A stretch of DNA of 64,000 bases from Thermoanaerobaculia bacterium (GCA_036389275.1 DASVQE010000106.1:10178-74177), one strand, 5' to 3'. Shown: positions 9,570-53,234, counted from the first letter of the stretch. The notes: generated by a model from the letters alone, not told the origin. Program-made: numbers and translations.

Positions 9570-10333
9570 CGAAGCTGATCGTCGGATTTGTTGTGATGGC
9601 GCTCGTCTTCATGACTCTGGAGCGCTTCGCGGCCGCGACGCCGCGCAAGCCGCTCTTTCGCCGTGAGCGCGCGGTCGACTTCGCCTGGTGGTTCTTCACA
9701 CCGTGGGTGACGAAGACCGCATCGACCCTCGCGGCGATCTTTGCCATCATCGTCGCAACGCTGTTCGTCCGTCTGATCAGCGGCGCCGATCCGTCGGCGC
9801 GTTGGATCGAGGCCCAGCCGCGGGCGTTGCAGATCGTGGAGATGCTCGTCCTCGCCGACCTCCTCGGATACGGCGCCCATCGACTGTTTCACGGACGGAG
9901 CTTGTGGCGGTTCCACGCCATCCATCACAGCGCCGAGGATCTGGATTGGCTGGCTGCGACTCGGATGCATCCGGTGAACGATGTGGTGATGACGGTGCTG
10001 CAGTTCGTTCCGCTCTATCTCATCGGATTCCGCGGCGAGACCCTCACGGCACTCGTTCCGCTGCTCAGCGTCTACGCGCTCCTGCTGCATGCGAACCTGC
10101 GCTGGGACTTTGGTCCGCTGCGATATGTCATCGCCAGCCCCGCTTATCACCGCTGGCATCACACGAGCGAGGCGGAAGGTCTTCAACGCAACTTTGCCGG
10201 GCTCTTTCCGTGGATCGACATGCTCTTCGGAACGCTCTACCTTCCGCGCGATCGCCACGCGCAGCGTTTCGGACTCGAAGGCGATCAGGTCCCGCGCTCG
10301 CTCCTCGCGCAGCTCGCCTATCCGTTCCGCTGA
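9548..10333 (+). CDS. fatty acid hydroxylase superfamily protein (sterol desaturase / carotenoid hydroxylase-like di-iron membrane enzyme)
   Basis: TM helices plus three histidine boxes HRLFH, HAIHH, HRWHH in canonical spacing; start overlaps idi end. Confidence 0.75.
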   Translation: MPPVPSVAKLIVGFVVMALVFMTLERFAAATPRKPLFRRERAVDFAWWFFTPWVTKTASTLAAIFAIIVATLFVRLISGADPSARWIEAQPRALQIVEMLVLADLLGYGAHRLFHGRSLWRFHAIHHSAEDLDWLAATRMHPVNDVVMTVLQFVPLYLIGFRGETLTALVPLLSVYALLLHANLRWDFGPLRYVIASPAYHRWHHTSEAEGLQRNFAGLFPWIDMLFGTLYLPRDRHAQRFGLEGDQVPRSLLAQLAYPFR

Positions 10334-11520
10334 GGCTCAGGATTCTCGAGCACGCGCCTGACTTCCTCGATCACTCCGGGCGTGCGCGGATCGTCGGCTC
10401 CGCCAGGCATCTCCACCACTGACTGTCCGATGACGAGCACGCGCGCGCCGGTCGTCGCTGTGGTCACCTTCGAGGCGTGAGGAGGAGGAGGCGGAATCGC
10501 GAGTGGCGCGGCCGGAATCGCCACCGACGGAAGGCCGAAGGCGATGTAGTAGGCCGTCGTGTGCTGGTAGCCCATCTGAGCCAACCAGTTCGCTTCCGCG
10601 GTTGCGGCAGGATTGATGAGCGAGGAGTTCACGGTTCCGATGATCGGCTGCACGTCCGGCATGATCGGCGCGTAATTTCCCTTCGCTGCGACGGCGGTGG
10701 CGAGCTCCACCAGCGAATCGATGCCGCGGCTCTCTGGGATCGCCGGCGCAAAGAGTGTCGGCAGCGCGGCCATCGTCTGCAGAGCCCACCAGTGTTGAAC
10801 CGGGTCGAGCGTGTTGATGAAACGCCGCGTCGTGCCGCCGAGGCGCGAAGCATAATAGTTCGCGAACTCCAGGTTGCCGGGCGTGGCGCCGGCGGTGGGC
10901 ATCGTCGACACCGTGGCGACGCGGTTCGGGTCCCAGCCCATCGCCGTTCCCTGCTGGTCGGCAAGCCAGAGCGCGAGCGCCGGCGCGAGCGCGCCGCCGA
11001 GGCTGTGTCCAGTGGTCTCGACCTGCACGCGGTTGGAGGAGCGGGTTACCTGCTCCAGGAATTGCGGCAACGTCAGGCCTGCGCCTTGAAGTCCTGCGGA
11101 CGGCGTCATCGTCAGCAGAATCGACACGCCGCTGGCGGTGGCCATGGAAATGGCGGCACCTTCCGCCGCCTGCGCGGGCCACGGCACCTGCACGGCGACA
11201 TTGAAGTCTTCGAGGAACCAGTCCATGGGTGAAGGGATGTTGGTGCCGGCCATGGCCACGACGAAGCGCGTCGGCTGTCCGATCGGGCTGGCCACATACA
11301 TCGCATTGAGCGCATACCCGTCGGCCGGGTACTGCATCACCGCAGGTCCCCAAACCACCTGCCACGGCGTATTCGTCTTCGCCAGACCCTCCGCCACGGA
11401 GTACGCGAGGCGATAGTCCAGACCGGGCCCGGTCAGAAACGAAACGAGGTTGGAGAGATAAGAAAGAAGAAAAACAACCTTGTCGTCCGGAGTGATCGTC
11501 GAGCCCTTCGCTATCGCCAT
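10318..11520 (-). CDS. class 3 lipase (alpha/beta hydrolase)
   Basis: Nucleophile elbow TGHSLGGALAPALALWLA typical of Lipase_3 family; start chosen at internal ATG (MAIAKG...) ~80 nt downstream of terminator copy A. Confidence 0.7.
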   Translation of the reverse strand: MAIAKGSTITPDDKVVFLLSYLSNLVSFLTGPGLDYRLAYSVAEGLAKTNTPWQVVWGPAVMQYPADGYALNAMYVASPIGQPTRFVVAMAGTNIPSPMDWFLEDFNVAVQVPWPAQAAEGAAISMATASGVSILLTMTPSAGLQGAGLTLPQFLEQVTRSSNRVQVETTGHSLGGALAPALALWLADQQGTAMGWDPNRVATVSTMPTAGATPGNLEFANYYASRLGGTTRRFINTLDPVQHWWALQTMAALPTLFAPAIPESRGIDSLVELATAVAAKGNYAPIMPDVQPIIGTVNSSLINPAATAEANWLAQMGYQHTTAYYIAFGLPSVAIPAAPLAIPPPPPHASKVTTATTGARVLVIGQSVVEMPGGADDPRTPGVIEEVRRVLENPEPQRNG

Positions 11521-11602
11521 TCGGCCATCATGACATAAAGACGCAATTCCGTATATGCCGCAAGACAGCGTTTGTGGAATGGCGTTACGGCGAGTCTGCT
11601 CT

Positions 11603-11631
11603 GAAAACACGAAAGCCGCCCAAGTGGCGGC
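11603..11631 (-). terminator. rho-independent terminator-like hairpin (copy A of repeated tRNA-Asp trailer)
   Basis: On minus strand: GCCGCCACTTGGGCGGC hairpin followed by TTTCGTGTTTTCAG; near-identical to element downstream of intact tRNA-Asp at 25180-25208. Confidence 0.5.
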
Positions 11632-11650
11632 TGATCAGCGCAACGAAATT

Positions 11651-11687
11651 TGGCGGGCCGACGGGGCTCGAACGCGCGACCTCGAGG
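11651..11687 (-). repeat. degenerate copy of tRNA-Asp 3' end (T-arm + acceptor 3' strand + CCA), copy A
   Basis: Minus strand reads GAGGTCGCGCGTTCGAGCCCCGTCGGCCCGCCA vs genuine GGAGGTCGCGGGTTCGAGCCCCGTCGGCCCCGCCA; no matching 5' half, so not a functional tRNA. Confidence 0.5.
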
Positions 11688-11950
11688 TCTAACGGATCAG
11701 GCACGCTCGCAGGCGCGACTTTGGCTGAGCCGCGGAACCGCATAACCAACTCGCTACCAATTCGGCATCGGCTAAGTAGCGCCACGGCTCGCGCGAGGCC
11801 GTCCGCCGGCCATCGCGCTCTAGCAGTAGATCGCCGCAGAGCTCATGGCCGCAGACGTAGCGGCAATCATGGGGCCACCTCCTGATGTTGCGTTCTTGGG
11901 GGTCGGGGATAGGAGCGAAGAAGGGAGAATTGGGAGCGAGAAGTCCATTC

Positions 11951-14900
11951 TCAATTCTCAGCAGCCTGCAGCCACCAGGATAGCGCCGCCGCGACGTCGC
12001 TCACGGGCGAGCCACGGAAACGCTGGCGGATCGCTTCGACGAGCTGGCGGTAGTGATCGGCGCGATGCATGCGCGCCCGAATGACGGACGATTGCGTGCG
12101 CCGGCGAATCGCGCGGCCGCCGGCGCCCGGAATCAACAGCGCGGCGCGAATGAGTGCGAACGCGGCATAGCTACGCTCGAGAAGCGCCCGGTCGAGCCGG
12201 AGCAATGTCTCGTTTCCCGACAGAGCCGCGAGATCGCCGAGGTATGCGGTCATGAGCGCATGGCGCCCGGTCCAGCCGGCGGCATCGGGCGGCAATAACC
12301 CCTGGTCTTCCAGGAGCTGGGCAACCTCGTAAAAAATCGGAAAACGCGCCGACTCGCTCGCTTCGAGGTCGAGCATCACAACGGATTGATCGCGCGTCAC
12401 GAGCCAGTTTTCGGCGTGCGCGTCCTTCTTGGCCACGGTCGGCAGCTCGGCATGGAGAGCGGCGCGAAGCATCTCCGCGACGCGCAACCTCTCCTCGCGA
12501 GGAACGTTGCAGAGCGACGCCAGCTCCTTAAGGCTATCGCGGATCACATCCGACAATGACGCCGCGGCCATGAGACCGCTTCCGACGCTGCGCCATGCGT
12601 GGAAACGCGCGAGAAACTGCACGGCGCGATCCAGCAGCACGCTCATTGCCGCCGCCGGATCGGAGCGGCGGAGGACGGCGATTCCGAGCTCGATGCCCGA
12701 TTCGCGGCGCATCACGTATGCAGTATTGCGCGCGGATTCGATCGTGGTGAGAGGTTCCGGCAGACGCATCCACGCCGGAGCTTGCGTCGCGGAGAGATAG
12801 TCGCGAAAAGCGCGGATCGTCGTGACCTCCCTCTCCGCGTTGTCTTTCGGGGTCTCTTTGACGATGAGTGTCGTGCTCAACAGCCGGTGCGGATCGTCGA
12901 TCGTATAGACCTTCGAGCGCCCGCTGTAATTGAAGTCGCGGCGGAAGCCGACCCGATTCTCCACGGCGATGCGACAAGCCTCGTGCAGGAGCTTGCCTGC
13001 CTCGCCGTTCACAGTCATTGCGACCAGCGGTTCCATTGCCGTCTCGCCCAAATGTTGTCGTGCAATCCCGCGCTCTCGCTCGGGCGCGCGCGACGCTTCG
13101 GCGAGCTGCATGACCGGCCACGCCCACGTGGGATCGGTCTGCGCCGCATCGGCCGCGGCACGAATGGCGGTGGTGAGGTCGGCGGCGGAATGCGTAATGG
13201 ACCAGATCTGTAATGCGGCATTGGCCGTGACGCTGAGATTCTCGCGCCAGCTCACGGCGTCGCCGGCGCCTGCCGAAGCACGCGCCCGATTCTTCCACTG
13301 CACCGCGGCCCGCAGATCTTCGACGTCGCGCCGCGCCCTCCCGCGCCGGAAATAGACGTCGCCCACGAGTCCGAACAACTCGGGGGTAGTATTTCCAAGC
13401 TCGTGCGCCTTCTCCAGATGGCGGATCGCCTCCGCCGCGTCGGGATCGTCACCGGTCAGGCCGTGAAGACGCGCATAAGCCTCGCCAGCGCGGCTATGCA
13501 CCGCCTTGACCGGGATTTTCTCCGAGAACGCGACGCCGGAAGAGTGGCGCGCAAATGCGTGCTCCATGAAATCGGCCGCGTCACGCAACAGAAGAACGGC
13601 GGCGGCGTCATGACCTTCCGCGAGCTCATTTCTGGCGAGCCGCAACGCCACCTCGCCGGCATGGCCATAAAGCTCCGGCGCGGCGGGCTCCTCGGTGGCA
13701 TCGATTGCCTCCATATACAACGCGTACGCCTCCCGATAGAGCGCGACGTCCTTTCGCGCCTTCGCGAGGAGCAGGGTCAGGCTGGCCGCGTGTCCTAGTG
13801 CAAAGCGGCGCGCCGGTCCCGAATGTGCTGGCTGCGCGGCGACACGCGTAAATATTGCCACGACGGGATGGACATACTCACGCCATTTCGGGTGGTCGCG
13901 CCTGACGAGAAACCGCAATGCATTGCTGAGCACCGGAACCAAGACGACGGTCTCGGGCGCTCGCTCGCGGATCCACCATTCGAGTTGCCGTGCGGTTTCT
14001 TCGAGATCCTCCGCGGCCATGCTGATCGCGAGCTCCGTATTGGCGACGCCGTACTTCGCTCGCTCCCTCAACCCCTCGGCGCCCTGAACCTCCTCGGCCG
14101 CGACCGCGCGATCCAGCGCCTCGCGCGCGTCCACGAGTGATCCCTGCAGCTCATTGCGTTTGTGCCGCAACTCCGCGCGGGCAACGAGGGCGGCCGGCAG
14201 CCACAGGTTCCTGAAGCTGGCGTTGTTCTCCCGTTCCACGTGCCGTAGGTCGTCGATGGCCCGCTCGAGCACGGCTTCTTCACGCGCGGGGTCGTCAATC
14301 ATGTACGTCCATCGCACAGCGGCGGCGGCGCGATTGAGGCGAAGGTACGGCTCCGCATGCGCGTGATGCGGCGGAAGCTCGAGCCCTTCCGTAAATGCAG
14401 CCATGGAGGATTCGAGTAGCGCAATCGCCTTCTCCGAATCTCCCTGCTCGGAGAGTCGATCCGCAAGTGCGGACGCAACAGTGCCGCGCAGACTGGAGAG
14501 CGCGCGCGTGCGCAATCCGCGTCCTCGCGCTTCGTCCAGCACCGCGGATGCGGCATGCAATTCGGTTATGTCGCGTGAGGTCTCATAGTGGTATAGCCAG
14601 GCTTCCACGAGATACTCCGAACGCTGCGGCGAGGAATCGCCAAGCAATCCGCTTTCCTGCAGATCCGCGATGGCGCGGACGAACAGTTCCGGCTGCGCTT
14701 GCGACCTGCCGAGAAAAACGGAAGTGACGCCGCGCATCCCGAGATAGCGGCGCCGCACGTGAGGATTCATCCGCGCTGCGTCCGCGGTCAGAAGGAAATC
14801 GAAATCGCGCAGGCACGCCTGCAGAGCCGCGACCTTTTCCGGGGTAATCGTCCCGCGGCGCCCGTAATGAAATTCGCGAGACGCCATGCTGCGCCTCGAT

Positions 14901-15277
14901 TCGAAATAGCATCCGGAAAGCGACATCGGACGGCCGGAGTTTGTCGCGGTACTCGTGGCGAGAAACCGGTGCAGGGTGCGCTCCCAAGGCATTCCGCGCT
15001 CGAACGCGCTCCGGAAGACTCCGAGCAGCAGCAGCACCGGGCGGTCCCACATTTCTTCGTCCGGCACTCGACGGTTGTCCAAAAACGTTTTCCATGCGCG
15101 GCCGAACACCACGCCGTCCGCTGGCGGACTCAATAAATCTGCAATGGTGACCGGGGCGATCAGCTCATTCGCGCGCGCGACGAGCTCCGCGTCGTCAAGA
15201 GCAATGCCGAGGGAGCGAAACGTCTCTTGTACGTCAGCATGAATGAAGGATGAGCTTACTTCTCTTACAGTATACAT
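11951..15277 (-). CDS. giant helical-repeat (TPR-like) protein with C-terminal APH/choline-kinase-like phosphotransferase domain
   Basis: 1108 aa; C-terminal ~300 aa carries kinase-fold landmarks: Gly-rich stretch then lysine (NYSGRSKVYTI...TLIVKETP), catalytic-loop-like DAHAENWLVTRD, and LDLE (cf. APH HGDxxxxN and IDxE); N-terminal ~750 aa alpha-helical repeats; no P-loop. Confidence 0.7.
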   Translation of the reverse strand: MYTVREVSSSFIHADVQETFRSLGIALDDAELVARANELIAPVTIADLLSPPADGVVFGRAWKTFLDNRRVPDEEMWDRPVLLLLGVFRSAFERGMPWERTLHRFLATSTATNSGRPMSLSGCYFESRRSMASREFHYGRRGTITPEKVAALQACLRDFDFLLTADAARMNPHVRRRYLGMRGVTSVFLGRSQAQPELFVRAIADLQESGLLGDSSPQRSEYLVEAWLYHYETSRDITELHAASAVLDEARGRGLRTRALSSLRGTVASALADRLSEQGDSEKAIALLESSMAAFTEGLELPPHHAHAEPYLRLNRAAAAVRWTYMIDDPAREEAVLERAIDDLRHVERENNASFRNLWLPAALVARAELRHKRNELQGSLVDAREALDRAVAAEEVQGAEGLRERAKYGVANTELAISMAAEDLEETARQLEWWIRERAPETVVLVPVLSNALRFLVRRDHPKWREYVHPVVAIFTRVAAQPAHSGPARRFALGHAASLTLLLAKARKDVALYREAYALYMEAIDATEEPAAPELYGHAGEVALRLARNELAEGHDAAAVLLLRDAADFMEHAFARHSSGVAFSEKIPVKAVHSRAGEAYARLHGLTGDDPDAAEAIRHLEKAHELGNTTPELFGLVGDVYFRRGRARRDVEDLRAAVQWKNRARASAGAGDAVSWRENLSVTANAALQIWSITHSAADLTTAIRAAADAAQTDPTWAWPVMQLAEASRAPERERGIARQHLGETAMEPLVAMTVNGEAGKLLHEACRIAVENRVGFRRDFNYSGRSKVYTIDDPHRLLSTTLIVKETPKDNAEREVTTIRAFRDYLSATQAPAWMRLPEPLTTIESARNTAYVMRRESGIELGIAVLRRSDPAAAMSVLLDRAVQFLARFHAWRSVGSGLMAAASLSDVIRDSLKELASLCNVPREERLRVAEMLRAALHAELPTVAKKDAHAENWLVTRDQSVVMLDLEASESARFPIFYEVAQLLEDQGLLPPDAAGWTGRHALMTAYLGDLAALSGNETLLRLDRALLERSYAAFALIRAALLIPGAGGRAIRRRTQSSVIRARMHRADHYRQLVEAIRQRFRGSPVSDVAAALSWWLQAAEN

Positions 15278-15610
15278 ACCGCCGGATTATAGAAGCTCGT
15301 GCCCCGGATCGATGTGGGTCATCTCGGCGATGACCATGCATTCGGGTGCGCCTCGCCGCTCCTGCCGCCGGGAAGAGGCAACACCGAGGCCGCAGACGAT
15401 GGCGCAGGTCCAAAAGATGTCGCGCAGGGTGCCTTCGAGGCGCCCTGCAACTGCGCGAGCTCGGCGCGAGCGATGTGCGATCGCACCAATGACCTCGTTC
15501 GCGTGGAACATTCGCGATTTGCACCGTTATTCAGTGCTTTCCGCAGCCTCTCGAAACGCCTACCTTGTGCGGAACGTTGTGCAGCTCGTTCGTCGCTTTT
15601 TCGTGTATGC

Positions 15611-15636
15611 AAACGAAAACGCCGCCAAGTGGCGGC
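15611..15636 (-). terminator. terminator-like hairpin (copy B of tRNA-Asp trailer), 3' of TPR-CHAT gene
   Basis: GCCGCCAAGTGGCGGC palindrome preceded on + strand by aaacgaaaac (U-run on minus strand). Confidence 0.5.
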
Positions 15637-15653
15637 GAGTGAATCACTTAGAT

Positions 15654-15713
15654 TGGCGGGGGCGACGGGGCTCGAACCCGCGACCTCCGGCGTGACAGGC
15701 CGGAGGGCTAACG
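15654..15713 (-). repeat. partial tRNA-Asp copy B (anticodon arm through CCA), pseudo-tRNA
   Basis: Minus strand CCGGCCTGTCACGCCGGAGGTCGCGGGTTCGAGCCCCGTCGCCCCCGCCA matches 3' ~50 nt of tRNA-Asp at 25228-25304 incl. GTC anticodon loop; D-arm and 5' acceptor absent. Confidence 0.6.
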
Positions 15714-15893
15714 ATTTGTGCATGCCGGGACCATCCGTATACGGCCGCGCAATGCCCCTCGATGTGTCCCGTTCATACAATCAATTGCCCAATGCGCGCA
15801 CCTCAGCCGTATTCGCTCGACATAGCCACCCCTTGGTCGCGATCTCCGAGGACCCAACGTGAAGAGATTCAAATCGAGGGCTGGCGTGCGACC

Positions 15894-18800
15894 TCACGAA
15901 GAGGTAACGAAGGCGTTGGGGGGCAGCTCGTTCGGATCGCCGATACAAATGAAACCCGCCCACAAATAGGGCGCTTCGTAGTCCTTCGCGACGGTGCGTT
16001 GCGCCAGCCGGAGCGCCTCCACGCGCCGGGCGCCGCGTTTCAGATGGACGTAGAAATGCTCCATCAGCTCGCGTGTCGCGTCGTCCGGTACGGGCCACAG
16101 GCTGACGATCAGCGTCCGTGCCCCGGCGAGTAGGAAGACGCGGCGGAGTCCGAAGACGCCTTCGCCAATCTGGTACTCACCGAGTCCCGTTTCGCAGGCC
16201 GAGAGCACGACCAATTCGGTGCTGGTGAGGTCCATCGAAAGCACATCTTCGGCGAACAGCACGCCGTCATCGAGGTCGTCGACGGCCGACATCCCTTCTA
16301 GCCACGTATTCGCGCCGGCGAGGACCACGCCGGAGCGAAGCAGCGCGTCTTTGCCGCCCAGCGGCCGGGGAGTGCTGCGGGCGTTTCGCAGAAGCGACTC
16401 CGCGGCGGCGGACTGGTCTTCCACGAAGAAACCATGCGTCGCGAGGTGGAGGATGAGAGGAGAGCGCCGTGATTTCACGGCCCGCTCCGTTGCCTCGGCG
16501 CCGAGAAGCGGCCGCACGTTGAGGAGTGTGGCCACGGCTTCTCCTTCCGCGCGCGTTCCGGCGAGCGGAAGGAAGACCGGAGACGTGATCTCGCGGTTCG
16601 CTCCGGCGTCGTAGTCCGGATCCGCTATTACCAGCGGGGCTGATGCGGGAGCGCCGGAAGCGTGCTGCACTCGCAGCAGATCGCGTGCTGTGGGGAGATA
16701 GCTGATCTCGAATAGGTCTCCGATGGAATCGCCGGTCTCCGTCTGCAGAATCCCGAACGGTAAGCGATGCAGCGCGCCGTCCGGAACGATGAACAGACGG
16801 TCGCGGCCGGCCAGCGCGGGCGCGAACGAATTCCACAGATGCTGCCACAGGTTCGCGCTCAGTCGGGTCCATTGGGCGCGGATCGGAATCGCCAGGTGGG
16901 GGAGGGCCGATTCCGCCTCGAGATCCTTCCGGATCTGTTCGATCAGCGGATCGATGTTCTCGGCTGAGCCGAGCACACACATTGTCACGCGCTCCGGCGC
17001 GCCGTTCGGCAGGATGAAGCCGAAATAGGCGCGCACCCGTCGGTCGGTGCCGGCCGCAAACATGTCGAGGGTGAGGAATTCGAGCAACGCGGCACCGAGA
17101 GGAAGCGCGGCAGCGAGCGAGGCGCGGTCGGCGCGCCGCAAACGCTCGGCCAGAGCGATTTCCGGGACGACGCGTGCGAGATCGAGTTCCAGCTTGCGCC
17201 GCTGCGATTTCAGCTCCCCGATCTGGTCTGCCGCGCCGTCCGCGGCATCCAGCGTCAGCCGGGCGATCTTGGCGCGCACCGCGAGCAGCTCGTCGAACTT
17301 CGGCCGCAGCTCCGAGCGGGTGTTGAGCGCGAGCAGCTCGCGCTCCGACGCGATCGTCTCCGCGAGGATGGCCTTCCGCTGCACGGCCATGTCGAACATC
17401 ACCATGGCGATGGCGGGATGCTCGTCGATGTGCGGCAGCAGCATCATGCCCGCGGTTGCGACACGCTCGAGGATCTCGCGCAGAAACGCAGCGCGCTCCT
17501 CTTCCGACGTCGCACCGAACGCGGCATCGATGGCCAGGTTTTCTTCGCGAAGGCTCTCCGACAGCATGACCACGGCATCGTCGACCCGCCCCGCGTCGAT
17601 GAGAGCCATCGCCAGGTTGAAGGCTGACTGGGCGCGGAACGGATGACCCTCTGGAAGAACGCGTTTGCGGATCGACAGCGCCTCGGTCTGCAGATCGATG
17701 GCGTCCTGCCCGCGCCCGGTTCGCGCATACGCGTTCGAAAGGTTATTCGCATTCGCCGTCCACTGGATGTCGCGCTCCTTCTTGAGCGCAAGCGCTTCTT
17801 CGAGATGCTCGATGGCTCGCCTGTCGTCGCCGCAATTGAGAAAGAAAAGTCCCGCGTTGTTGAGCGCGGCGGACAACTCCAGCGGCTCCTCGGCCGCTGT
17901 GCGAAGAATCGCCAAGGCCTCCTTGAACAGAGCCTCGGCCGCATCGCGCCGTTTCTCGAACTCATGCACGCTCGCTTGGTGCATCAGCGCCATGGCATAC
18001 CAGCGCGATCTCTTTCCTTCCTTCTCCGCGCGCGCACGGAACTGTGCAACGAGCGGCTTCATGGCCTCGATGTTGCCCATACGGTGATAGACATCGATGA
18101 GCTGATTGAGCGGAGTCCCGATGCGGTCGAAGGGCTGATCGTCGGGGTTCTCGATGCGCATGAGCCGTTCGAGGGCGCGCTTTGCTTCCGGGTCGTTGTG
18201 CTCCGCGAGCTCGAGACCGGAAAGGTGCTCGATCGTGTTGCGCAGATCGGAGTCCGTTGCGTCCTCCCGGCTCTCCTTCGCGGCAACCGACCGGCGGTAG
18301 TGTTCGCGGGCCTGTGTGGCATCGCCGGAGATGTTATGTAGCGCGCCGAGGTTGTGCAGTGTTCCGGCGATCTCCCGATGATCGGGTGGAAGAACCTGTT
18401 GCTGGATCTGCAACGCCTCGCGGAGCAGCTCGCCGGCTCTCGGAAGGTCGGTCCGCAGGGTGATCAGCGCGTAAGCCACATTCCCCAGCATTCGCGCCAA
18501 GCCCGCATCGGGGGCCGCCGTCTCGCGATGGATGCGAACGGCGTGCTCGAAGAGCGTGCGCGCGCCGTGGAGATCTCCACGCTCGCGGAAGGCGATCCCG
18601 GTGTTGTTCAGCTCCGCCGAGAGTTGCGGTGCCCATTCGCGGATCGCCGCGGGATCGCCCATCTTGAGGCAAGCTACGACGTTGTCGACGCTTACGGGCT
18701 CTTCGCGTTCGGTTGCACCGCGCAGCCTCGTGAGCAGAGCCAGGACGGAGACACGCTGGCCCTTCGCGGCGACCGCCGGATCGACTGCGCCGGGATCCTC

Positions 18801-19448
18801 ACCGGCGGCACCGCGGATGAGGATGATGTTCTCCGCATAGATTCGCTCTCCTTCGGCATCGCCGAAGCGGCGGCAATGTTCGTACGCCGCCGTAGTCGCC
18901 TCGAGCGCGCCGCGATGATCGTCCGCCGCCAAGCGGCATTCGCCGATACGGCCGAGAACCATTGATCGCAGGTGATCGACGGCCGGACCGTCGGCGGCGT
19001 CCATCTCGCGCAGCACGGAAGCAAGCATCCGCTCCGCGCGCTGGCCGTCGCCGTTCTCGAGTATGGAGGATGCCTCCTCCATCATGTGCTGCCAGCGCTC
19101 GGTAGGGTCGTCGTCTTCTTCGCCCTCCTCCTCGTCATCGCCGGGCTGCGACATCAGCAGCTCGCGCGGGCCGGTGTCCCCCAGGTAATCGGCGAAGAAC
19201 TTCGCGATCGTGCCGAGGACCATGCCGTGGAGCTGGACCTCGGATCCATCGGTGCCTTCCTTGATCTCGATGACCCGCCATTGTGGTAGCTCGCGTTTGA
19301 TCAGCTCGCGATGCTTGCGGCAGAGATCGAGGAACGCCTGTGCGTCACCCCGCGCGGCGGCCTTGCGCAGTTCTTTCCACACTTTTTCGGGCGACGCGGC
19401 GCGGAAGAAATCAAACACGGGGCCTCCTGATGACGGACTCCACGTCAT
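15894..19448 (-). CDS. giant TPR-repeat protein with C-terminal CHAT (caspase-like) peptidase domain
   Basis: 1184 aa; C-terminal CHAT signature with catalytic dyad context PLILHLATHGFF (His) and ELVVLSACETGLGE (Cys); long TPR-like repeats upstream; acidic Glu/Asp run near N-terminus. Confidence 0.8.
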   Translation of the reverse strand: MTWSPSSGGPVFDFFRAASPEKVWKELRKAAARGDAQAFLDLCRKHRELIKRELPQWRVIEIKEGTDGSEVQLHGMVLGTIAKFFADYLGDTGPRELLMSQPGDDEEEGEEDDDPTERWQHMMEEASSILENGDGQRAERMLASVLREMDAADGPAVDHLRSMVLGRIGECRLAADDHRGALEATTAAYEHCRRFGDAEGERIYAENIILIRGAAGEDPGAVDPAVAAKGQRVSVLALLTRLRGATEREEPVSVDNVVACLKMGDPAAIREWAPQLSAELNNTGIAFRERGDLHGARTLFEHAVRIHRETAAPDAGLARMLGNVAYALITLRTDLPRAGELLREALQIQQQVLPPDHREIAGTLHNLGALHNISGDATQAREHYRRSVAAKESREDATDSDLRNTIEHLSGLELAEHNDPEAKRALERLMRIENPDDQPFDRIGTPLNQLIDVYHRMGNIEAMKPLVAQFRARAEKEGKRSRWYAMALMHQASVHEFEKRRDAAEALFKEALAILRTAAEEPLELSAALNNAGLFFLNCGDDRRAIEHLEEALALKKERDIQWTANANNLSNAYARTGRGQDAIDLQTEALSIRKRVLPEGHPFRAQSAFNLAMALIDAGRVDDAVVMLSESLREENLAIDAAFGATSEEERAAFLREILERVATAGMMLLPHIDEHPAIAMVMFDMAVQRKAILAETIASERELLALNTRSELRPKFDELLAVRAKIARLTLDAADGAADQIGELKSQRRKLELDLARVVPEIALAERLRRADRASLAAALPLGAALLEFLTLDMFAAGTDRRVRAYFGFILPNGAPERVTMCVLGSAENIDPLIEQIRKDLEAESALPHLAIPIRAQWTRLSANLWQHLWNSFAPALAGRDRLFIVPDGALHRLPFGILQTETGDSIGDLFEISYLPTARDLLRVQHASGAPASAPLVIADPDYDAGANREITSPVFLPLAGTRAEGEAVATLLNVRPLLGAEATERAVKSRRSPLILHLATHGFFVEDQSAAAESLLRNARSTPRPLGGKDALLRSGVVLAGANTWLEGMSAVDDLDDGVLFAEDVLSMDLTSTELVVLSACETGLGEYQIGEGVFGLRRVFLLAGARTLIVSLWPVPDDATRELMEHFYVHLKRGARRVEALRLAQRTVAKDYEAPYLWAGFICIGDPNELPPNAFVTSS

Positions 19449-19504
19449 TGATGGAACGACGTACTCACCTCGTGGAGCCTCGATATTAAGTGCCTGGACA
19501 GTGA

Positions 19505-19693
19505 CCGTACAGGGGTTTCACCGACGCCACGCTCTGCATCGGCTGCAAGGCGTGCGAAGTGCCGTGTAAGGAGTGGAATGACGTGCCGGCGGTGGGTATG
19601 CGCTTCCGGCAGCTCGTACGACGGCCGGTTCGGCAGACCGGGCGAGTGACCCTCTGGTGCGGATGCTCTTGCATCAATTCGGCGCACCCTTGA
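19505..19693 (+). pseudogene. remnant of 4Fe-4S ferredoxin-type oxidoreductase subunit (FdnH/DmsB/HybA-family N-terminus)
   Basis: Startless 62-codon open frame encoding TDATLCIGCKACEVPCKEWNDV, resembling conserved N-terminal first-cluster motif of formate dehydrogenase-N beta-type subunits; remainder of frame unrelated. Confidence 0.3.
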
Positions 19694-19990
19694 ATCTTCT
19701 GGTTGTGTTGCGACACCGCCACTGGATCTTGATCCGGGACGGGACTTCCGTTGGCAGCAAGCGAAGTGTGTACGATTATCGGACGCGCGTCCTTCATATC
19801 AAGGGAGTTCCGCGGAAACGCCAAACCCTACCCACGGATCGGCGCCTGCCCCGGCGATATTTTCCGTGGAGCATCCGTGCGAAAGCTTGAAACATGCAGT
19901 TTTTGGTCGCGGGCCCGCGGGCGACGTTCGCTCGCCAAATTGGCGACCTTGCGAGTCACTTTGCGAGTCTCCAGTTTTAAGTTACCCGCT

Positions 19991-20090
19991 GAAACACGAA
20001 GCGCCGAAGTGGCGTCTGCTGAGTGCTTTAGATTGGCGAGGCCGACGGGCTCGAACCCGCGACATCCGGCATCAGGCCGGCGGTCTTGGC
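19991..20090 (-). repeat. degenerate tRNA-Asp 3' fragment + degenerate terminator hairpin (copy C)
   Basis: Minus strand CCGGCCTGATGCCGGATGTCGCGGGTTCGAGCCCGTCGGCCTCGCCA plus GCGCCGAAGTGGCGTC hairpin; ~230 nt toward lower coordinates also resemble region 25070-25180 next to genuine tRNA. Confidence 0.5.
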
Positions 20091-20142
20091 ATAGAGCGAG
20101 GCAGTCAAGACGATCCTGTAACTCGTCGCACCGCTCCTATTC

Positions 20143-23100
20143 TTGTACCCTCTGAGAATGCTTTCTTTCGTGTCTGACAACGCAATTCCGTGTGGGATGT
20201 GTGGCTTTCCGCTACCGCGCACCACGGTCTATCGCGTCGTCCGTGACGACTCGGATCCTGTGGCCGTCGCGTCGGTGATGGATGGCAACGTCAATTGCAT
20301 TGTCTGTCCGAACTGTGAATACAAGGGCTGGATCACGATCCCGCTGCTGTGGGTTGATCGCGCCCACAAACGCGCCGTTTTCGTAGAGAACGCTGCGTCA
20401 CATCCCGGTCAAAGCGAAACTGTATTCAACGAGCTTGCAGAGATCGCATTCGGTGGCGTGGATCCCGAGGATCGCGAGGCGATTCTCGGCCGGTTGCAAC
20501 AAGTGAAATGGCCGACGGAGATTCGGGCGGCGCTGAAACTCTCACCTGAGCAGGCAGAAGCGGAACGGAAGGCTTACGACGCGTTCCTGCGCCGCGACAT
20601 TCTCCCGCTGCCGGAGCGGCTCGAGCAGGCGATCCGCGACATGATTCAATCCGGCGCGTTTTACGCCGAGGGCCGAGAGCTGTCGCGGGAATTCCTCGCG
20701 CTCGCCGAAGGCGAACTTGCAAAGATCGCCGAGAACGACATGAGCTCGCGCGCGCAGTCGCTGCGGCAGTTGGTGCCGAATCTTGCGGAACGGATCAAGA
20801 CGACCTCCCCACAGGAGACGCCTCCTGTCCCCGCCGCGGATTGGGAGGCGGAGGGTGGCCCGAAGTTCGAGGGCTTCACCGCATGGATAAACGTTGCGTC
20901 GCGCGACTCCGGCGAACAGGGTACGACTGGGAAACGGGGAAGCGCCGAGGCCGCACCAGTCGTCGATTTCGCAGGTCTCGCCGGTCGCGCTGCATCGGAG
21001 AATGACGCCTCGGAGCGTGTTGCCGTGCTACGTGAACTCACGTCCGGTTACCTGAACGCCGGACTACCGCACGAAGCCGCCGCCGCGGCGCGCGAGTTCC
21101 TCAAGGCAGCGGGGGCGGCAAACGATCAGGCGGCGGGCGTGGATGCACTCGTCTTCGCCGCGGCCGCTGCAGCACGCTCCGGCGACGGCCAAGCGGCGAT
21201 CAACTATCTTGCGCATGCCGAGGCGGAGATCCACAAGATGTCCTCTGTCTCGATTCAGACTCTGGCTTACGGAGCGGAGATAGGCGGCGATGCATACATG
21301 CTCGTTCGCCGTTTTCCCGACGCTTGCCGGCAGTACCAGCGTGCCCTCGAGTTGTACGAGCGCGACGGTCGAGCGGATGGCATACGCGTGGCTCTGGGAC
21401 GCTTGGCCAACGCGTGCATGCGTGCCGGCGATCTCGATCAGGCGATCGCCGCCGACCGGCGGCTCGTCGATGAATTGGGCGATACGGCCGACGGCATCAG
21501 GACCCGCCTCAATCTAGGGGGCGCGCTCGCTACCGCCAGTCCGCCACCCGAGCTAACCGTGGACATCGGATTCACCGTCGCTCCCAAATCGAGCCCGGAG
21601 ACGCAAACGGCCGAGAGACTCGATGCACCGGCCCCCGCGGCGCCGCCGGGACTGCGATGTCGCATCGAAGCGAAGCTGCGGACGGAGGTTGGGCGGGAGC
21701 GAGTGCTTTTCGAAACCATCGTGGGCGACGAGGCCATCGATCAGATGACCCGCGCGCGTAACGATGCAATCCGCATCGGCGCCGACGACCTAGAGCTCAG
21801 TGCGTACGACTTCATGGTGAACGCCTTTCTCGGCTATCACATGCGCAGGGCCGCGCGAGACGTTCTTCAACTCTCGATCAAGCGGCACGAAGAGCTCGGA
21901 CGTTCCGTTCGCCCGTACACCGTGGCGCTCCTCGGGGCGGTGTGGGAAGCGACGGCGCAGGATGCGGGAGTCGCCGGTGATCAGGACGAAGCGCGAAATG
22001 CGTGGACGCGGGCACTGGGCGTCTTCGAGCGCGCGGAGCGCGAGTCCGCCGCGCGGGGAGAGCTCGACGCCGCGGATGAGATCCGATCGATGTCGAAGGC
22101 CGGTCAGTCGATCTGTCTCGAAGCGCTCGGCCGACATGCCGAAGCCCGCGACGGATATCGCCGGGCGATGGGGATGTTCGAAGGCGCGCGGCAATATCTG
22201 ATCGAGCGCGACCAGAAGGAGTTCGTGCAGGGACGCTCGATGATCCTGTTTTCGCGTGCGCAGCGGAACAATCTCGCGCTCTACGCCTCCACCGGTGACG
22301 CTGCGCTGCTCGAGGAATCCTTCTATTTCGCCGACGCGGGACGTTCCCGAATTCTCCTCGATGAAATCGGCGCCGCCGGAATCGCGCGGCCGGTCACGGT
22401 CGAGGACATCGCCGGCGGCCTTCCGCACGGCGCGGCGCTTGTGCAGTACTCACTGATGCCAACCTACCCGAACTGCGCCGGAAGCTGGGCGATCTACACC
22501 ATCGTTCCCCGAACGGGACTGGCGCCGTTCGTCATTCAGCAGAATCTCGATCAGGTGCTGAAGGCGCGCGACGCACTCTACTCCGCAATCGACACTTTCC
22601 AGGCCGGGCAATGGCACGATTTCGGGAGTTTCAATGCCGCGTTGGAGGATCTCGGATCTCTTCTGCTTCCTCCGCAACTCGTCGAATTCCTCCGCAGAAG
22701 CGGCGTCACCCGGATCATCTTTGCTCCGGAGGCGTATTTGATGGATGTGCCGTTCGCGGCGCTGCGCGTTCGGTGGAACGGAACGTTGGACGATCTGAGC
22801 CGCGGCGGTATCGAGACGATCGTCGTTCCCAGCGCGAGCGTCTATGTCTCGGCAGGCGAGCGCCGGGCGAAAGAGAGTGCCGCGCACTCGCTGCTCTGCA
22901 TCAGCGATCCGAACGAAGATCTCCCCGGAGTGACGGAGTGGATCGACCAGAACGTACGCTCCACCTGGCCAGGAAAATCGGAGCATCTCTCGAAAACGAA
23001 TGCGGTGCGAAGCGGTGTCTTCGGCGCGCTTCCGCAGGCGCGGGTGGTCTTTTATTTCGGCCATGGGGATTATGAACAGAACGACATCGACAGTTCCGGG

Positions 23101-23469
23101 CTGCTGCTGCACGACGATCCACTGACGTTCAACGATCTTTTGGACACCGAGCTGAAGCTCGACTGCGACCTCTTTCTCGCGCTCGCATGTTTCGGGGCGC
23201 GTGTGGATGCCGACTGGCATTCGCGCGAGACCGTCGGTTTTTCCAGCGCGCTGCTGCAATCGGGCGTGCGCAATGTGGTCGCAGGACTGTGGCCGATGAC
23301 GGTGGGCTTCGCAACGGCGTTCGGGGCCGCGATCATGCGGCACCTCGCCGCTCGAGTGCCGATCGCCGACGCCTGCCGGCGTGCACTGATCGAGACGCGC
23401 GACGCCGATCCGCGCTGGGCCCATCCGTGGTCGTGGGCCGGTGTGAGGCTGACCGGCACCGGCTCCTGA
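20143..23469 (+). CDS. giant zinc-ribbon + TPR-like protein with C-terminal CHAT peptidase domain
   Basis: 1108 aa; N-terminal Cys4 ribbon (CGMCG ... CIVCPNC); helical repeats; C-terminal CHAT context VVFYFGHGDY (His) and LFLALACFGARVD (Cys). Confidence 0.75.
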   Translation: MYPLRMLSFVSDNAIPCGMCGFPLPRTTVYRVVRDDSDPVAVASVMDGNVNCIVCPNCEYKGWITIPLLWVDRAHKRAVFVENAASHPGQSETVFNELAEIAFGGVDPEDREAILGRLQQVKWPTEIRAALKLSPEQAEAERKAYDAFLRRDILPLPERLEQAIRDMIQSGAFYAEGRELSREFLALAEGELAKIAENDMSSRAQSLRQLVPNLAERIKTTSPQETPPVPAADWEAEGGPKFEGFTAWINVASRDSGEQGTTGKRGSAEAAPVVDFAGLAGRAASENDASERVAVLRELTSGYLNAGLPHEAAAAAREFLKAAGAANDQAAGVDALVFAAAAAARSGDGQAAINYLAHAEAEIHKMSSVSIQTLAYGAEIGGDAYMLVRRFPDACRQYQRALELYERDGRADGIRVALGRLANACMRAGDLDQAIAADRRLVDELGDTADGIRTRLNLGGALATASPPPELTVDIGFTVAPKSSPETQTAERLDAPAPAAPPGLRCRIEAKLRTEVGRERVLFETIVGDEAIDQMTRARNDAIRIGADDLELSAYDFMVNAFLGYHMRRAARDVLQLSIKRHEELGRSVRPYTVALLGAVWEATAQDAGVAGDQDEARNAWTRALGVFERAERESAARGELDAADEIRSMSKAGQSICLEALGRHAEARDGYRRAMGMFEGARQYLIERDQKEFVQGRSMILFSRAQRNNLALYASTGDAALLEESFYFADAGRSRILLDEIGAAGIARPVTVEDIAGGLPHGAALVQYSLMPTYPNCAGSWAIYTIVPRTGLAPFVIQQNLDQVLKARDALYSAIDTFQAGQWHDFGSFNAALEDLGSLLLPPQLVEFLRRSGVTRIIFAPEAYLMDVPFAALRVRWNGTLDDLSRGGIETIVVPSASVYVSAGERRAKESAAHSLLCISDPNEDLPGVTEWIDQNVRSTWPGKSEHLSKTNAVRSGVFGALPQARVVFYFGHGDYEQNDIDSSGLLLHDDPLTFNDLLDTELKLDCDLFLALACFGARVDADWHSRETVGFSSALLQSGVRNVVAGLWPMTVGFATAFGAAIMRHLAARVPIADACRRALIETRDADPRWAHPWSWAGVRLTGTGS

Positions 23470-23482
23470 CCGGGCCTGCCTG

Positions 23483-24922
23483 TCATCCTCCGATCAGCCA
23501 GTACTGCTCGTCGGTCTCGGTCCTCGCCTCGCGGAGACCGAACCGATCCTGCGGCGGATGGCCGTGCCGAATCAGCGCGTGCATGTCGGTGAGCACGTCG
23601 CGCGCCGCCGCGACATACCCGTGCCCGAGCATGGTCAGGTCGGCGTTGGTCACGTTGATCGTGTCGATCTCCGGCAGGACCAGCACCGGCGGGATGAGAC
23701 CGGCCCGCGGAAAGTGGTGGAGCCAGCGCGAAGCTTCGACCGCGCGGTCGCGCTCCGAAACGTACAACGTTGTCCGCTGCGCGAGCCGCGTATAGGCGGT
23801 GCTGAGCGAACGGAACGTGTCGGCGTCCACATCGGCCGCCGCGAGGATGAACTGCCCGAAGCGAATGCCGGATCGTTTGTGGGCCGCCGCGGCGATCCGG
23901 TTCACCGCCCGGAGCACTGCGCGATTGCCCATGCTGTGGGCGATCACGTGGACCATGCGTGCGCCGCTCTGCATCGCGAAGTCGGAGAGATAGTCCGCGA
24001 TCGCTCCTTCGCTGGCCTCGATCGTCGCGGCGTCGGCCAGGTAGCCGTCGAGCGTTCCCTGCGAGGGCCAGCTGAAGAACGCCATCGCGCCTTTGACCTG
24101 GAGGTCGAAGCCGATCTGCGCGGCGCGAAGCGCTGCCTCCTCGAAGGAAACGTTGTAGCCGTGCACGAACACCAGCGCGTCCCGTTCCTCAGCGGCGAAC
24201 GCCGCCAAGCGATCACGAATCTGTTTCCAGTGATCCTCCGCCGATGTTGCCGAGATGCCGAGGAGCCGCAGGCGGTCGTCGGACATCGTCAGGAGCCGCT
24301 TCCACCAGCGCGAGCCAATCGAGCCAATCTTGTGGGACTTCGGAATGAACACGCGGCAGGAGCCGTAGTCGACACTGCTTGCGCGCTCGGACGAATACCC
24401 TTTGCTGACATCCTCCGGATAGATCCGCTTGCGGTTCGTGGCGTACGAGACGACGTATTCCGCGCGGTCTCCGGCGGCCGCGGAGCGCGATCTCGTCTCG
24501 CGGCGGCGAGCGAGAAGGGCTTCGTCCGATGGCTCCGGCTGTCCAGACGTAGGAGCGGGTCCAGCGCGTGCCACCGGCTCGCTCGGCACCTCGATTGCCA
24601 TATGGTCCGTGACGGACATCGTGCCCGATGAAGGAAGCGTTCCCACGAAGACCATGGAGGCGAGCTTCGACCCGCGCTGCAACACATCTAGCCGACCGGA
24701 GTACCCCGTTCCAGGCTGGCCTTCTGCCCGCCAATCGATGTGTATGTCCATCGTGTCGCCGCCCGCGAGCGTCAACAGCACCATTCCGGGCGAGTCGAAC
24801 CGGTACATACCCATCTGCGCGTCCGGTCGGTGAACGGATACAGTTGCTGTTACGCTCGCCGGAGGCTCGGCCGTGAACGTCACCTCCAGCGGGAGATTCC
24901 GATCTGCAAGGACACGCATCAT
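23483..24922 (-). CDS. alpha/beta hydrolase (DUF900/PF05990-like) with ~220-aa N-terminal domain of unknown function
   Basis: ALVFVHGYNVSFEEAALRAAQ and VIAHSMGNRAVL (nucleophile elbow) typical of DUF900 hydrolases; N-terminal region without recognisable motifs; lies just after tRNA-Asp terminator on same strand. Confidence 0.65.
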   Translation of the reverse strand: MMRVLADRNLPLEVTFTAEPPASVTATVSVHRPDAQMGMYRFDSPGMVLLTLAGGDTMDIHIDWRAEGQPGTGYSGRLDVLQRGSKLASMVFVGTLPSSGTMSVTDHMAIEVPSEPVARAGPAPTSGQPEPSDEALLARRRETRSRSAAAGDRAEYVVSYATNRKRIYPEDVSKGYSSERASSVDYGSCRVFIPKSHKIGSIGSRWWKRLLTMSDDRLRLLGISATSAEDHWKQIRDRLAAFAAEERDALVFVHGYNVSFEEAALRAAQIGFDLQVKGAMAFFSWPSQGTLDGYLADAATIEASEGAIADYLSDFAMQSGARMVHVIAHSMGNRAVLRAVNRIAAAAHKRSGIRFGQFILAAADVDADTFRSLSTAYTRLAQRTTLYVSERDRAVEASRWLHHFPRAGLIPPVLVLPEIDTINVTNADLTMLGHGYVAAARDVLTDMHALIRHGHPPQDRFGLREARTETDEQYWLIGG

Positions 24923-25179
24923 TCAAGGGTAGCGGGTCCGGCCAGTCGCTGGAAGTCCTGAGCGCCGTCGTGCTAGGACCGGGTATGGTCGTAGGCAGCC
25001 GTGGCGCCGTTCAGCGAGCGGAGGGAGCTCGGCGTTGTAACAGGTTTTCCCGTGGAACATCGACGCAGAAGCGCGCAACATTTTGCAATTCTGGTCGCGG
25101 GTCTGCGGCAAAATTCGCTCGCGGAAATCGCGACCTTGCGAGTGAGCTTGCGAGACACAACTTTCTAAGCCAACCCACT

Positions 25180-25208
25180 GAAAACACGAAAGCCGCCGAA
25201 GTGGCGGC
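25180..25208 (-). terminator. rho-independent terminator of tRNA-Asp
   Basis: Minus strand GCCGCCACTTCGGCGGC hairpin followed by TTTCGTGTTTTC immediately 3' of tRNA. Confidence 0.55.
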
Positions 25209-25227
25209 TGATCAGCGCAACGAAATT

Positions 25228-25304
<77 letters not shown>

Positions 25305-43469: not shown

Positions 43470-43489
43470 CTCTCTCTCCGGTGTCGGGA

Positions 43490-43942: not shown

Positions 43943-44014
43943 CTAGCTCTCCAAATGGCAGCCGAACCATCCACGTGCACGATGCACGGGGACTTCATGC
44001 TTTGCGTCCCTGCC

Positions 44015-45483: not shown

Positions 45484-45509
45484 TTCCTGCGAGTACCATT
45501 CTTTCGGCC

Positions 45510-53150: not shown

Positions 53151-53175
53151 GTCATCCCGAGCGTAGCGAGGGACC
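53151..53175 (+). repeat. left 25-bp terminal inverted repeat flanking GIY-YIG gene
   Basis: GTCATCCCGAGCGTAGCGAGGGACC, 1 nt after gspE-like stop; exact reverse complement at 53532-53556. Confidence 0.8.
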
Positions 53176-53234
53176 CGGGCGGGCGGCGCGGCAGGGCCTG
53201 AGATTTTCTCACCGCCCGAGGTACCCTCGGCCCA

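Follow-up and report, generated by a model that had tools for sequence, protein, structure and literature searches.

Two neighbouring genes that each encode a very large protein ending in a CHAT protease domain raise the question of whether these proteases act together and with which partners. They lie in a 64 kb stretch of DNA (~65% G+C) of a metagenome-assembled genome from a soil Thermoanaerobaculia bacterium (Acidobacteriota; GCA_036389275.1 DASVQE010000106.1:10178-74177), which we call the window, and they are referred to here as gene A and gene B. An initial annotation had described them as a convergent pair of giant proteases without any known partner. Our analysis suggests a different arrangement: A and B are probably not a pair at all, and B appears to have its partner on the other side, in a gene for an alpha/beta-hydrolase of the DUF900 family. 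We propose that B and the DUF900 gene may form a two-gene conflict module, in which a sensor protease would gate a lipid-hydrolase effector and the outcome would be abortive infection or cell suicide. The probability of this explanation is, in our estimate, about one half. Gene calls were compared with those of JGI contig Ga0334925_000034 and ENA k141_381297, both of which carry identical proteins.

The DUF900 hydrolase beside gene B

The DUF900 gene is convergent with gene B, and 13 bp separate the two stop codons (Table 1). These are the only two genes between copy C of a tRNA-Asp-derived repeat and the tRNA-Asp region itself (25107-25304). As read from the sequence only, the window DUF900 protein has a variable N-terminal extension, which a Pro/Ser/Arg-rich linker (~aa 100–155) joins to the hydrolase core. 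No signal peptide and no transmembrane segment were found in it. Its predicted Ser-Asp-His triad is intact and does not vary among 10 homologs (Table 1). The initial annotation stated that the two proteases are unpaired with any known partner; no gasdermin or Cas7-11 gene was found among the called neighbours, but the conserved convergent hydrolase gene of B had been overlooked.

The same arrangement was found next to P0099, a relative 33% identical to B, which has a convergent DUF900 neighbour with overlapping stop codons. The hydrolase of P0099 is 61% identical to that of the window over 328 residues. We also found 428 records of DUF900 homologs on plasmids and examined 14 of the loci. A repeat-CHAT gene adjoins DUF900 in three of them. 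In Hymenobacter sp. GOD-10R (L014) it is a divergent 1318-aa TPR-CHAT gene (TPR, tetratricopeptide repeat), accompanied by a trypsin-like protease, and in Streptomyces canus (L020) a divergent 1085-aa TPR-S/CHAT gene. In Sulfitobacter sp. SK012 (L033; plasmid NZ_CP025805, 68395-80735), a compact cluster among metabolic genes contains a Sel1-repeat CHAT protein (1289 aa), a C14 caspase (722 aa), a divergent DUF900 protein (578 aa), and a WD40 giant (1388 aa). In a fourth locus, from Bradyrhizobium, M12 and trypsin-like proteases are in an operon with DUF900. CHAT-like sequences are so rare on plasmids (357 places in 72,556 plasmids) that a repeated CHAT-DUF900 adjacency by chance is implausible. 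The DUF900 proteins adjoining CHAT genes are predicted to have cytoplasmic variable N-terminal extensions, without the lipoprotein-like N-termini of several stand-alone homologs.

In previous studies, the Pfam domain seen most often in homologs of cinquedea, a bactericidal phospholipase of archaea, was DUF900 (bioRxiv 10.64898/2026.06.10.730825), and algal fusions of DUF900 with candidate ROCO receptors have been described (PMC11378527). Given this link and these fusions, a membrane-damaging effector role would fit DUF900. The former link can also be read in another way, in which DUF900 and a nearby Lipase_3 protein (gene at 10318-11610) would be exported antibacterial toxins for inter-bacterial competition, and the CHAT proteins would be their maturation or immunity factors. 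Cinquedea is itself secreted, its homologs mostly carry DUF900, and several plasmid DUF900 proteins have lipoprotein-like N-termini. However, neither the window DUF900 protein nor those adjoining CHAT genes have a signal peptide or transmembrane segment, B has no export signal, and the cassette contains no gene for a secretion system or for an immunity-like protein. We therefore regard exported toxins as a very improbable explanation. In the literature on CpXC, DUF900, Borvo, and CHAT-hydrolase pairings, we found no description of a CHAT-DUF900 system.

Gene B and its family

The open reading frame (ORF) of B opens with a TTG at 20143 (1108 aa), as in the initial annotation, and the start called by JGI is at 20197. 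The most likely start is the ATG at 20158, since the alignment with homolog P0002 (56% identity) begins at this codon, and since translation from the JGI start would give a protein that lacks its first Cys, a zinc ligand. The catalytic residues of B are numbered from this ATG.

The N-terminal Cys4 ribbon noticed in the initial annotation belongs to a Pfam CpXC domain (PF14353; 29.7 bits against a cut-off of 25.4), with its cysteines in CxxC...CPxC pairs. All four ribbon cysteines are kept in most members of the family. An AlphaFold2 (AF2) model of aa 1–215 had a pLDDT of 91.5 and a pTM of 0.81. No PDB structure matched this module at E≤0.001 (best E=0.3), and there was a weak match to one unnamed phage protein in BFVD. 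Weak Pfam TPR matches were also found in B, and neither a hydrophobic segment of transmembrane grade nor an export signal was detected in it.

The C-terminal CHAT match of B (98 bits) covers profile positions 3–288 of 289, and that of A (245 bits) covers positions 2–289; the PF12770 cut-off is 24 bits. The motifs FYFGHG and LALACFG are present in B, and HLATHG and LSACETG in A. When A and B were compared with PDB chains by plain sequence, only TPR matches came up, and a profile of the CHAT domains was needed to reach DdvA and Csx29. This profile (alignment A7), which combined the CHAT domains of A, B, and nine relatives, was searched against PDB sequences. Its best match was DdvA of Myxococcus (8rot_B, E=1e-11), followed by several Csx29/TPR-CHAT chains (E ~2e-11 to 4e-9). 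The one His and one Cys that never vary in the profile align with H862 and C907 of DdvA, its reported catalytic dyad (PMC11506125), and with the dyad region "CHG...ACE" of Csx29. His1005/Cys1085 of A and His969/Cys1011 of B were assigned on the basis of this alignment with DdvA. The dyads proposed in the initial annotation, whose absence from a proper alignment would have spoken against it, are thus in place.

We then compared the fold of B with known structures. An AF2 model of the protein, built from a 7-sequence alignment, had a mean pLDDT of 75.7. Foldseek matched it to human and yeast separase, Csx29 (8eey_B, 8eex_B, and 7zoq_A), and DdvA with E values from 1e-13 to 1e-9; a structural comparison had been suggested in the initial annotation. 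In this model of B, a separase/caspase-like fold is preceded by helical repeats, and the modelled fold is separase/Csx29-like. Every CHAT-family character that can be computed, namely a full-length profile match and the position of the dyad, was present in A and in B. Both are predicted to be TPR-CHAT cysteine proteases of clan CD, separase/Csx29-like, with intact His/Cys dyads.

The family of B was sought by a word-indexed search, by an exhaustive hidden Markov model search of 1.84 billion representatives, and in 185,579 species genomes. The word-indexed search returned only B itself and P0002, and repeating it with the family alignment added no further homologs. The exhaustive search gave 4657 matches at the level of CHAT, only 17 of which had E≤1e-30. 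About 10 of these 17 align over the full length, N-terminal module included, and P0101–P0105 have the CpXC-TPR-CHAT architecture of B. Among the species genomes, just one (Variovorax sp. E3) contains a relative. A metagenome scan yielded two extra loci (L007 and L008), both poor, which were left out. From these searches, B is assigned to a rare, patchy, uncharacterised CpXC-TPR-CHAT family.

Gene A and the gap between the two genes

Both giant ORFs of the initial annotation were recovered, with the correction to the start of B given above. Their orientation was not as described: the start codons, at 19448 in A and ~20158 in B, face the gap, so the genes are divergent and head-to-head.

Gene A is the lone gene of its cassette. 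It has the TPR array and the acidic stretch that had been pointed out before; the former has matches to kinesin-light-chain-type TPRs in PDB by sequence search. A sequence scan found no strong transmembrane segment. The Pfam score of its CHAT domain leaves little doubt about the predicted protease assignment. We found 93 homologs of A at E≤1e-10, the best non-self one having 34% identity, and most are named "CHAT domain-containing tetratricopeptide repeat protein" and come from Acidobacteriota, Planctomycetota, Myxococcota, and others. By its domains and homologs, A is classed as a solitary, ordinary, generic TPR-CHAT protein. The best homolog, P0004, has a 249-aa Peptidase_C14 gene directly downstream and a TIR-FGE-sulfatase gene nearby, while another relative, P0007, is near an integrase fragment, a methylase, and a NERD-kinase. 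As judged from these genes, the two closest relatives of A sit in conflict-type neighbourhoods.

The best BLASTP alignment between A and B had an E value of 0.007 over 128 residues, and the two proteins are barely alignable. The possibility that they are recent paralogs was rejected on this result. This near-zero shared sequence, and the tRNA-Asp fragment that lies between them like a cassette boundary, are why A and B are probably not a pair. The fragment suggests that they were acquired separately.

The initial annotation had proposed a search of the gap for a small partner or substrate. None was found: the gap contains no credible ORF, only Arg-rich noise ORFs, and the JGI and ENA pipelines call no gene in it. 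Promoter-like hexamers lie back to back at ~19751-19802, where our scan found two sites against 0.8 expected. A 25-codon in-frame relic (19514-19588, plus strand) resembles the N-terminus of FdnH/NrfC-type 4Fe-4S subunits; it has no surrounding ORF and is probably debris inside the cassette of A.

Organisation of the locus

The window contains an intact tRNA-Asp(GTC) gene and three partial, decayed direct copies of its 3′ half, identified by repeat search and alignment (Table 1). The core of the T-arm has four matches in the window against zero expected by chance. With Rfam at a relaxed threshold, copy B gave a weak, sub-threshold tRNA match (15665-15710, 22 bits) and was the only copy supported in this way; copies A and C rest on direct alignment. 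As judged from the copies and the region at 25107-25304, the repeated unit runs ~120 nt past the 3′ end of the tRNA and includes a terminator hairpin. The hairpin of copy A is 98% identical to that at 25178-25234. Copy A, the most distal, thus has a terminator nearly identical to that of the intact tRNA, yet its tRNA part is the most diverged.

These copies split the interval into three cassettes: a 74-aa ORF with a 1108-aa protein, gene A, and gene B with the DUF900 hydrolase. The repeat that had been noted between A and B is therefore real, and represents a tRNA-Asp-derived boundary. To the left, the array is flanked by NUDIX, fatty-acid hydroxylase, and Lipase_3 genes, and to the right by dTDP-sugar isomerase and AI-2E transporter genes. 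Direct repeats derived from the 3′ portion of a tRNA are present here, as in tRNA-anchored integrative islands. An array of such putative tRNA fragments is a signature of serial insertion at a tRNA gene, and the locus is best explained by three small cassettes, acquired horizontally and arrayed beside tRNA-Asp as their anchor.

The leftmost cassette has the 1108-aa protein as its sole large protein (11951-15277, minus strand), preceded by the 74-aa ORF (15287-15511, minus strand). No Pfam family matched the former, in which aa 594–674 are TPR-like and the C-terminus (KKDAHAENWLV...MLDLE) by eye resembles the catalytic loop of kinase/APH proteins. Just outside the leftmost tRNA-Asp fragment, the Lipase_3 (class 3 lipase) gene, on the minus strand, encodes ~400–430 aa; with it, a second lipase-like gene borders the array.

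Table 1. Coordinates of genes, predicted domains and residues, and tRNA-derived elements in the window.
Feature	Position	Strand	Evidence or remark
Gene B, predicted CpXC-helical-TPR-CHAT protease, 1103 aa	20158..23469	+	ORF, Pfam, AF2
B N-terminal CpXC module, aa 1–215: zinc ribbon, small beta-sheet, helical bundle	20158..20802	+	Pfam, AF2
B zinc-ribbon Cys12, Cys15 / Cys50, Cys53	20191-20202 / 20305-20316	+	CxxC...CPxC pairs
CHAT domain of B	22639..23457	+	Pfam aa 833–1105 (Pfam residue range), E=8e-28
B predicted catalytic His969	23062-23064	+	invariant in B family
B predicted catalytic Cys1011	23188-23190	+	invariant in B family
DUF900 (PF05990) alpha/beta-hydrolase, up to 479 aa (pipelines: 441–443 aa)	23483..24922	-	Pfam E=4e-42
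DUF900 predicted Ser330	23933-23935	-	invariant in 10 homologs
DUF900 predicted Asp364	23831-23833	-	invariant in 10 homologs
DUF900 predicted His434	23621-23623	-	invariant in 10 homologs
Gene A, predicted cytoplasmic TPR-CHAT protease, 1184 aa	15894..19448	-	ORF, Pfam
CHAT domain of A, aa 862–1171	15936..16865	-	Pfam E=1.3e-72
A predicted catalytic His1005	16434-16436	-	invariant in CHAT alignment, aligns to DdvA dyad
A predicted catalytic Cys1085	16194-16196	-	invariant in CHAT alignment, aligns to DdvA dyad
A TPR array, ~aa 274–634	17547..18629	-	Pfam TPR_12 x4 + TPR_10
A acidic run DDEEEGEEDDD, aa 104–114	19107-19139	-	sequence
Divergent intergenic gap, 709 bp	19449..20157	.	ORF list
tRNA-Asp(GTC), intact, cassette-array anchor	25228..25304	-	ARAGORN; Rfam 71 bits
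Terminator of intact tRNA-Asp	25191-25209		terminator scan
Repeat copy A: leftmost tRNA-Asp 3′ fragment and terminator hairpin, distal array end	11601..11708		repeat search, alignment
Repeat copy B: tRNA-Asp 3′-half fragment and downstream region, boundary of the 1108-aa protein and A cassettes	15550..15712		repeat search, alignment
Repeat copy C: decayed tRNA-Asp 3′ half and downstream terminator region, boundary of the A and B + DUF900 cassettes	19920..20090		repeat search, alignment

Neighbourhoods of related genes

Other members of the B family have different neighbours. Next to P0103, a CpXC-CHAT gene in locus L026, lies a gene for a 230-aa TIR_2 protein (9074-9766, plus strand), which overlaps the stop codon of P0103. 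Peptidase_C14 proteins of 562–806 aa are encoded directly upstream of P0097, P0098, and the Variovorax homolog (in loci L009 and L006 and in Variovorax sp. E3). The Variovorax sp. E3 locus also has a split small CHAT gene, an nSTAND1-WD40 giant, and a C25-like peptidase, and its B homolog has a weak Pfam C50 match. In L006, a 288-aa protein encoded between the caspase and the CHAT gene is homologous to a "serine peptidase" near the Streptomyces CHAT-DUF900 pair. P0096 is near an Mrr/STAND-like giant, a PLD-like gene, and a methylase gene. As far as gene content can tell, this variation among DUF900, TIR, and C14 caspase neighbours, with NUDIX and Abhydrolase_1 genes after P0100, shows effector swapping.

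Several details of these loci were noted in addition. An SLFN/AlbA_2 gene is also near P0103, and L026 looks like a CpXC-CHAT plus TIR module. In Variovorax sp. E3 (L005; NZ_MOWM01000019), the small CHAT gene (14231-15975) sits between the CpXC-CHAT gene and the nSTAND1-WD40 gene and is split into two overlapping ORFs, possibly by a frameshift or as a pseudogene. The Sulfitobacter cluster (L033) unites both themes seen around the window genes.

The caspase neighbours bear on the idea that A and B form a two-protease cascade, in which one CHAT protease, on a cue, would cleave and activate the other, which would degrade many targets. A precedent is SAVED-CHAT, which acts on PCaspase (Steens et al.; bioRxiv 10.1101/2023.06.23.546230), and the C14 genes upstream of CpXC-CHAT in the three loci named above, the 249-aa C14 gene downstream of P0004, and the joint presence of Sel1-CHAT, caspase, and DUF900 in Sulfitobacter all agree with it. 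However, A-type and B-type genes are adjacent in this genome only, and the second protease elsewhere is a C14 caspase rather than another TPR-CHAT protein. The divergent transcription of A and B, their lack of shared sequence, and the decayed tRNA-Asp fragment between them, with its suggestion of separate acquisition, also speak against a cascade, which we consider quite unlikely.

The neighbourhoods also bear on a possible regulatory or housekeeping role of A and B outside defence, for example a developmental or signalling one like that of cyanobacterial HetF or separase, in which case their neighbours would be coincidental cargo of an island. Bacteria with complex lifestyles have very many TPR-CHAT proteins, as the 4657 CHAT-type matches illustrate, PADLOC detected no recognised defence system in the window, and the genes flanking the array are housekeeping ones. 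Moreover, P0100 (L011), which is followed by genes for a NUDIX protein, a 128-aa protein, and an Abhydrolase_1 protein, sits in a region of otherwise housekeeping genes (pheST and aro genes). But L011 is the only one of ~9 loci with such a context, and there the B-type gene heads an operon with the NUDIX and alpha/beta-hydrolase genes; the homologs are thus not consistently in housekeeping contexts, which the initial annotation had named as a finding that would count against a defence role. A and B themselves are in cassettes bounded by tRNA fragments, and members of the B family are few and scattered (~17 clusters at E≤1e-30 among 1.84 billion representatives, and one of 185,579 species genomes). 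Other loci hold parts of conflict systems, namely TIR, nSTAND-WD40, caspase, PLD, and methylase genes and FGE-sulfatase fusions. A housekeeping role is therefore unlikely in our judgement.

Comparison with known systems

Gasdermins have been shown to be cut, and so activated, by CHAT and C14 proteases encoded next to them (Johnson et al.; bioRxiv 10.1101/2021.06.07.447441). Like B and DUF900, gasdermin-protease systems combine a repeat-fused caspase-like protease with a neighbouring latent membrane-damaging effector, and, as in the DUF900 loci, the effector is kept while the protease class varies between loci. They differ in that the gasdermin forms pores, whereas the effector here is a Ser-Asp-His alpha/beta-hydrolase, and in that their genes are in an operon and those of the window on opposite strands; cleavage is only proposed here. 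No gasdermin family was found among the called neighbours of A and B, and the gap contains no credible ORF.

Csx29, the protease of type III-E Craspase, is allosterically gated and cuts a dedicated partner, Csx30. B resembles it in TPR-CHAT architecture, in fold (Foldseek ~5e-12 to 8eey_B), and in the aligned His/Cys dyad. However, B has a CpXC module, which Csx29 lacks, and is ~350–400 residues longer. The initial annotation had noticed that no CRISPR or Cas genes are adjacent. Our search agreed, with no CRISPR array in the 64 kb and no Cas7-11, Csx30/31, or RpoE among the neighbours.

SAVED-CHAT and PCaspase of Haliangium (type III-B/CBASS; bioRxiv 10.1101/2023.06.23.546230) are, like A and B, two clan-CD proteases encoded together, and relatives of the A and B families often have a Peptidase_C14 neighbour. 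In the window, however, the second protease is another TPR-CHAT protein in a separate cassette, and no SAVED domain, cyclase, or Cas10 was found in A, B, or their neighbours. DdvA, a transmembrane anti-sigma factor of Myxococcus with a periplasmic TPR-CHAT region (PMC11506125), shares with B the order of N-terminal zinc module, TPR, and CHAT. In DdvA, the zinc module is an anti-sigma domain of CHCC type, a transmembrane helix comes after it, and the partner is an ECF sigma factor, whereas B has CpXC and no such helix. No sigma-factor gene was found among the neighbours of B.

Borvo is a single-gene system whose CHAT protein, BovA, has been implicated in anti-phage defence, and it was the sole PADLOC model to match. 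The match of B to BovA (23.8 bits, E=5e-6) is confined to profile positions 550–667 of 711, a stretch of 118 residues in the CHAT core, and does not extend to the full length. We looked for the partners or domains that define each of these five systems and found them absent, so A and B are placed outside the Csx29/Craspase, gasdermin-protease, SAVED-CHAT, DdvA, and Borvo systems. Separase (Peptidase C50) gave top structural matches and has the same architecture of helical repeats and a CHAT-like protease, but it is a eukaryotic cohesin protease under the control of securin and Cdk, with no sequence relationship to B past the catalytic core.

Other features of the window

A c-di-GMP-I riboswitch (43954-44040, minus strand, 54 bits) is directly upstream of a gene for a 1560-aa protein (38862-43544, minus strand) with fn3, purple-acid-phosphatase-N, and PQQ/beta-propeller domains, which is probably a surface protein controlled by c-di-GMP. 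Two paralogs of GspE/PilB-type secretion ATPases (45291-47315 and 50843-53149, both plus strand) lie 5.8 kb apart and share stretches of ~70–79% DNA identity. There are also two inverted repeats. One is of 167 nt (59306-59472 and 59560-59726), 85% complementary with an 87-nt spacer, and the other of 40 nt (53151-53190 and 53517-53556), 95% complementary with its arms 326 nt apart.

Biological meaning

The release of a death effector by a caspase-like protease is a theme common to bacterial, fungal, and animal immunity. To our knowledge, the bacterial substrates known so far are gasdermins, Csx30, and PCaspase with its downstream targets. B is proposed as a sensor protease gating the DUF900 hydrolase because the two are the sole genes of their cassette, their adjacency outlasts deep divergence of the protease, and DUF900 recurs beside several protease classes. 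We liken the pattern to that of bacterial gasdermins, since most of these have as neighbours the proteases, of CHAT, C14, or other type, by which they are cleaved and activated.

In the mechanism that we propose, B would be inactive at rest, and its CpXC/TPR region would sense a cue derived from an invader or from stress. A conformational change would then bring His969 and Cys1011 into line. B would cut the N-terminal extension or the linker of the DUF900 protein, and possibly other targets. The lipid/ester hydrolase freed in this way would be active and would damage the cell envelope, which would lead to abortive infection or cell suicide. The trigger, the substrate and its cleavage, and the physiological outcome are steps that we infer.

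Several findings weigh against this explanation. Among the 14 plasmid DUF900 genes, 10 have no protease neighbour, and several of these 10 resemble secreted lipoproteins. Downstream of P0002, the closest homolog of B, lie DUF5984 and FGE-sulfatase genes rather than DUF900, and P0002 has no fourth zinc-ligand Cys, so the ribbon may be dispensable. B-type and DUF900 genes were on opposite strands in every case seen, never in one operon. PADLOC matched neither A nor the DUF900 protein and gave B only the weak, partial BovA match. No integrase, which would have been proof that the cassettes are mobile, was found among the ORFs scanned at 1-30 kb of the window. In addition, the census is small, with ~9 B-family loci and 14 DUF900 loci. 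Separately, a 441-aa convergent ORF near P0002 was considered as a DUF900 homolog and was rejected on comparison.

What stands of the defence or Csx29-like reading in the initial annotation is the caspase fold of the proteases and the setting, which is like that of a conflict island, with tRNA-bounded cassettes and effector-rich neighbourhoods of the homologs. The pairing of A with B and the lack of a partner do not stand. As read from the genes, B and DUF900 plausibly make up a variant of the protease-gated effector modules that has apparently not been described. A wider proposal can be offered only tentatively, and with considerable doubt: DUF900 hydrolases may as a class be cell-killing effectors under protease control and the lipase equivalent of bacterial gasdermins, partnered interchangeably with CHAT, caspase, and trypsin-like proteases, and CpXC-TPR-CHAT with DUF900 may be an undescribed abortive-infection system, with the fold-orphan CpXC module as the sensor of the invader.

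The proposed module is small, with two genes in ~5 kb, and the catalytic residues to mutate are clear in both proteins, so that heterologous expression would offer a direct test. Should CHAT and DUF900 prove to work as a pair, this would add a lipid-hydrolase arm to the logic of protease-effector systems, and it would give a role to the large DUF900 family and to the uncharacterised CpXC domain.

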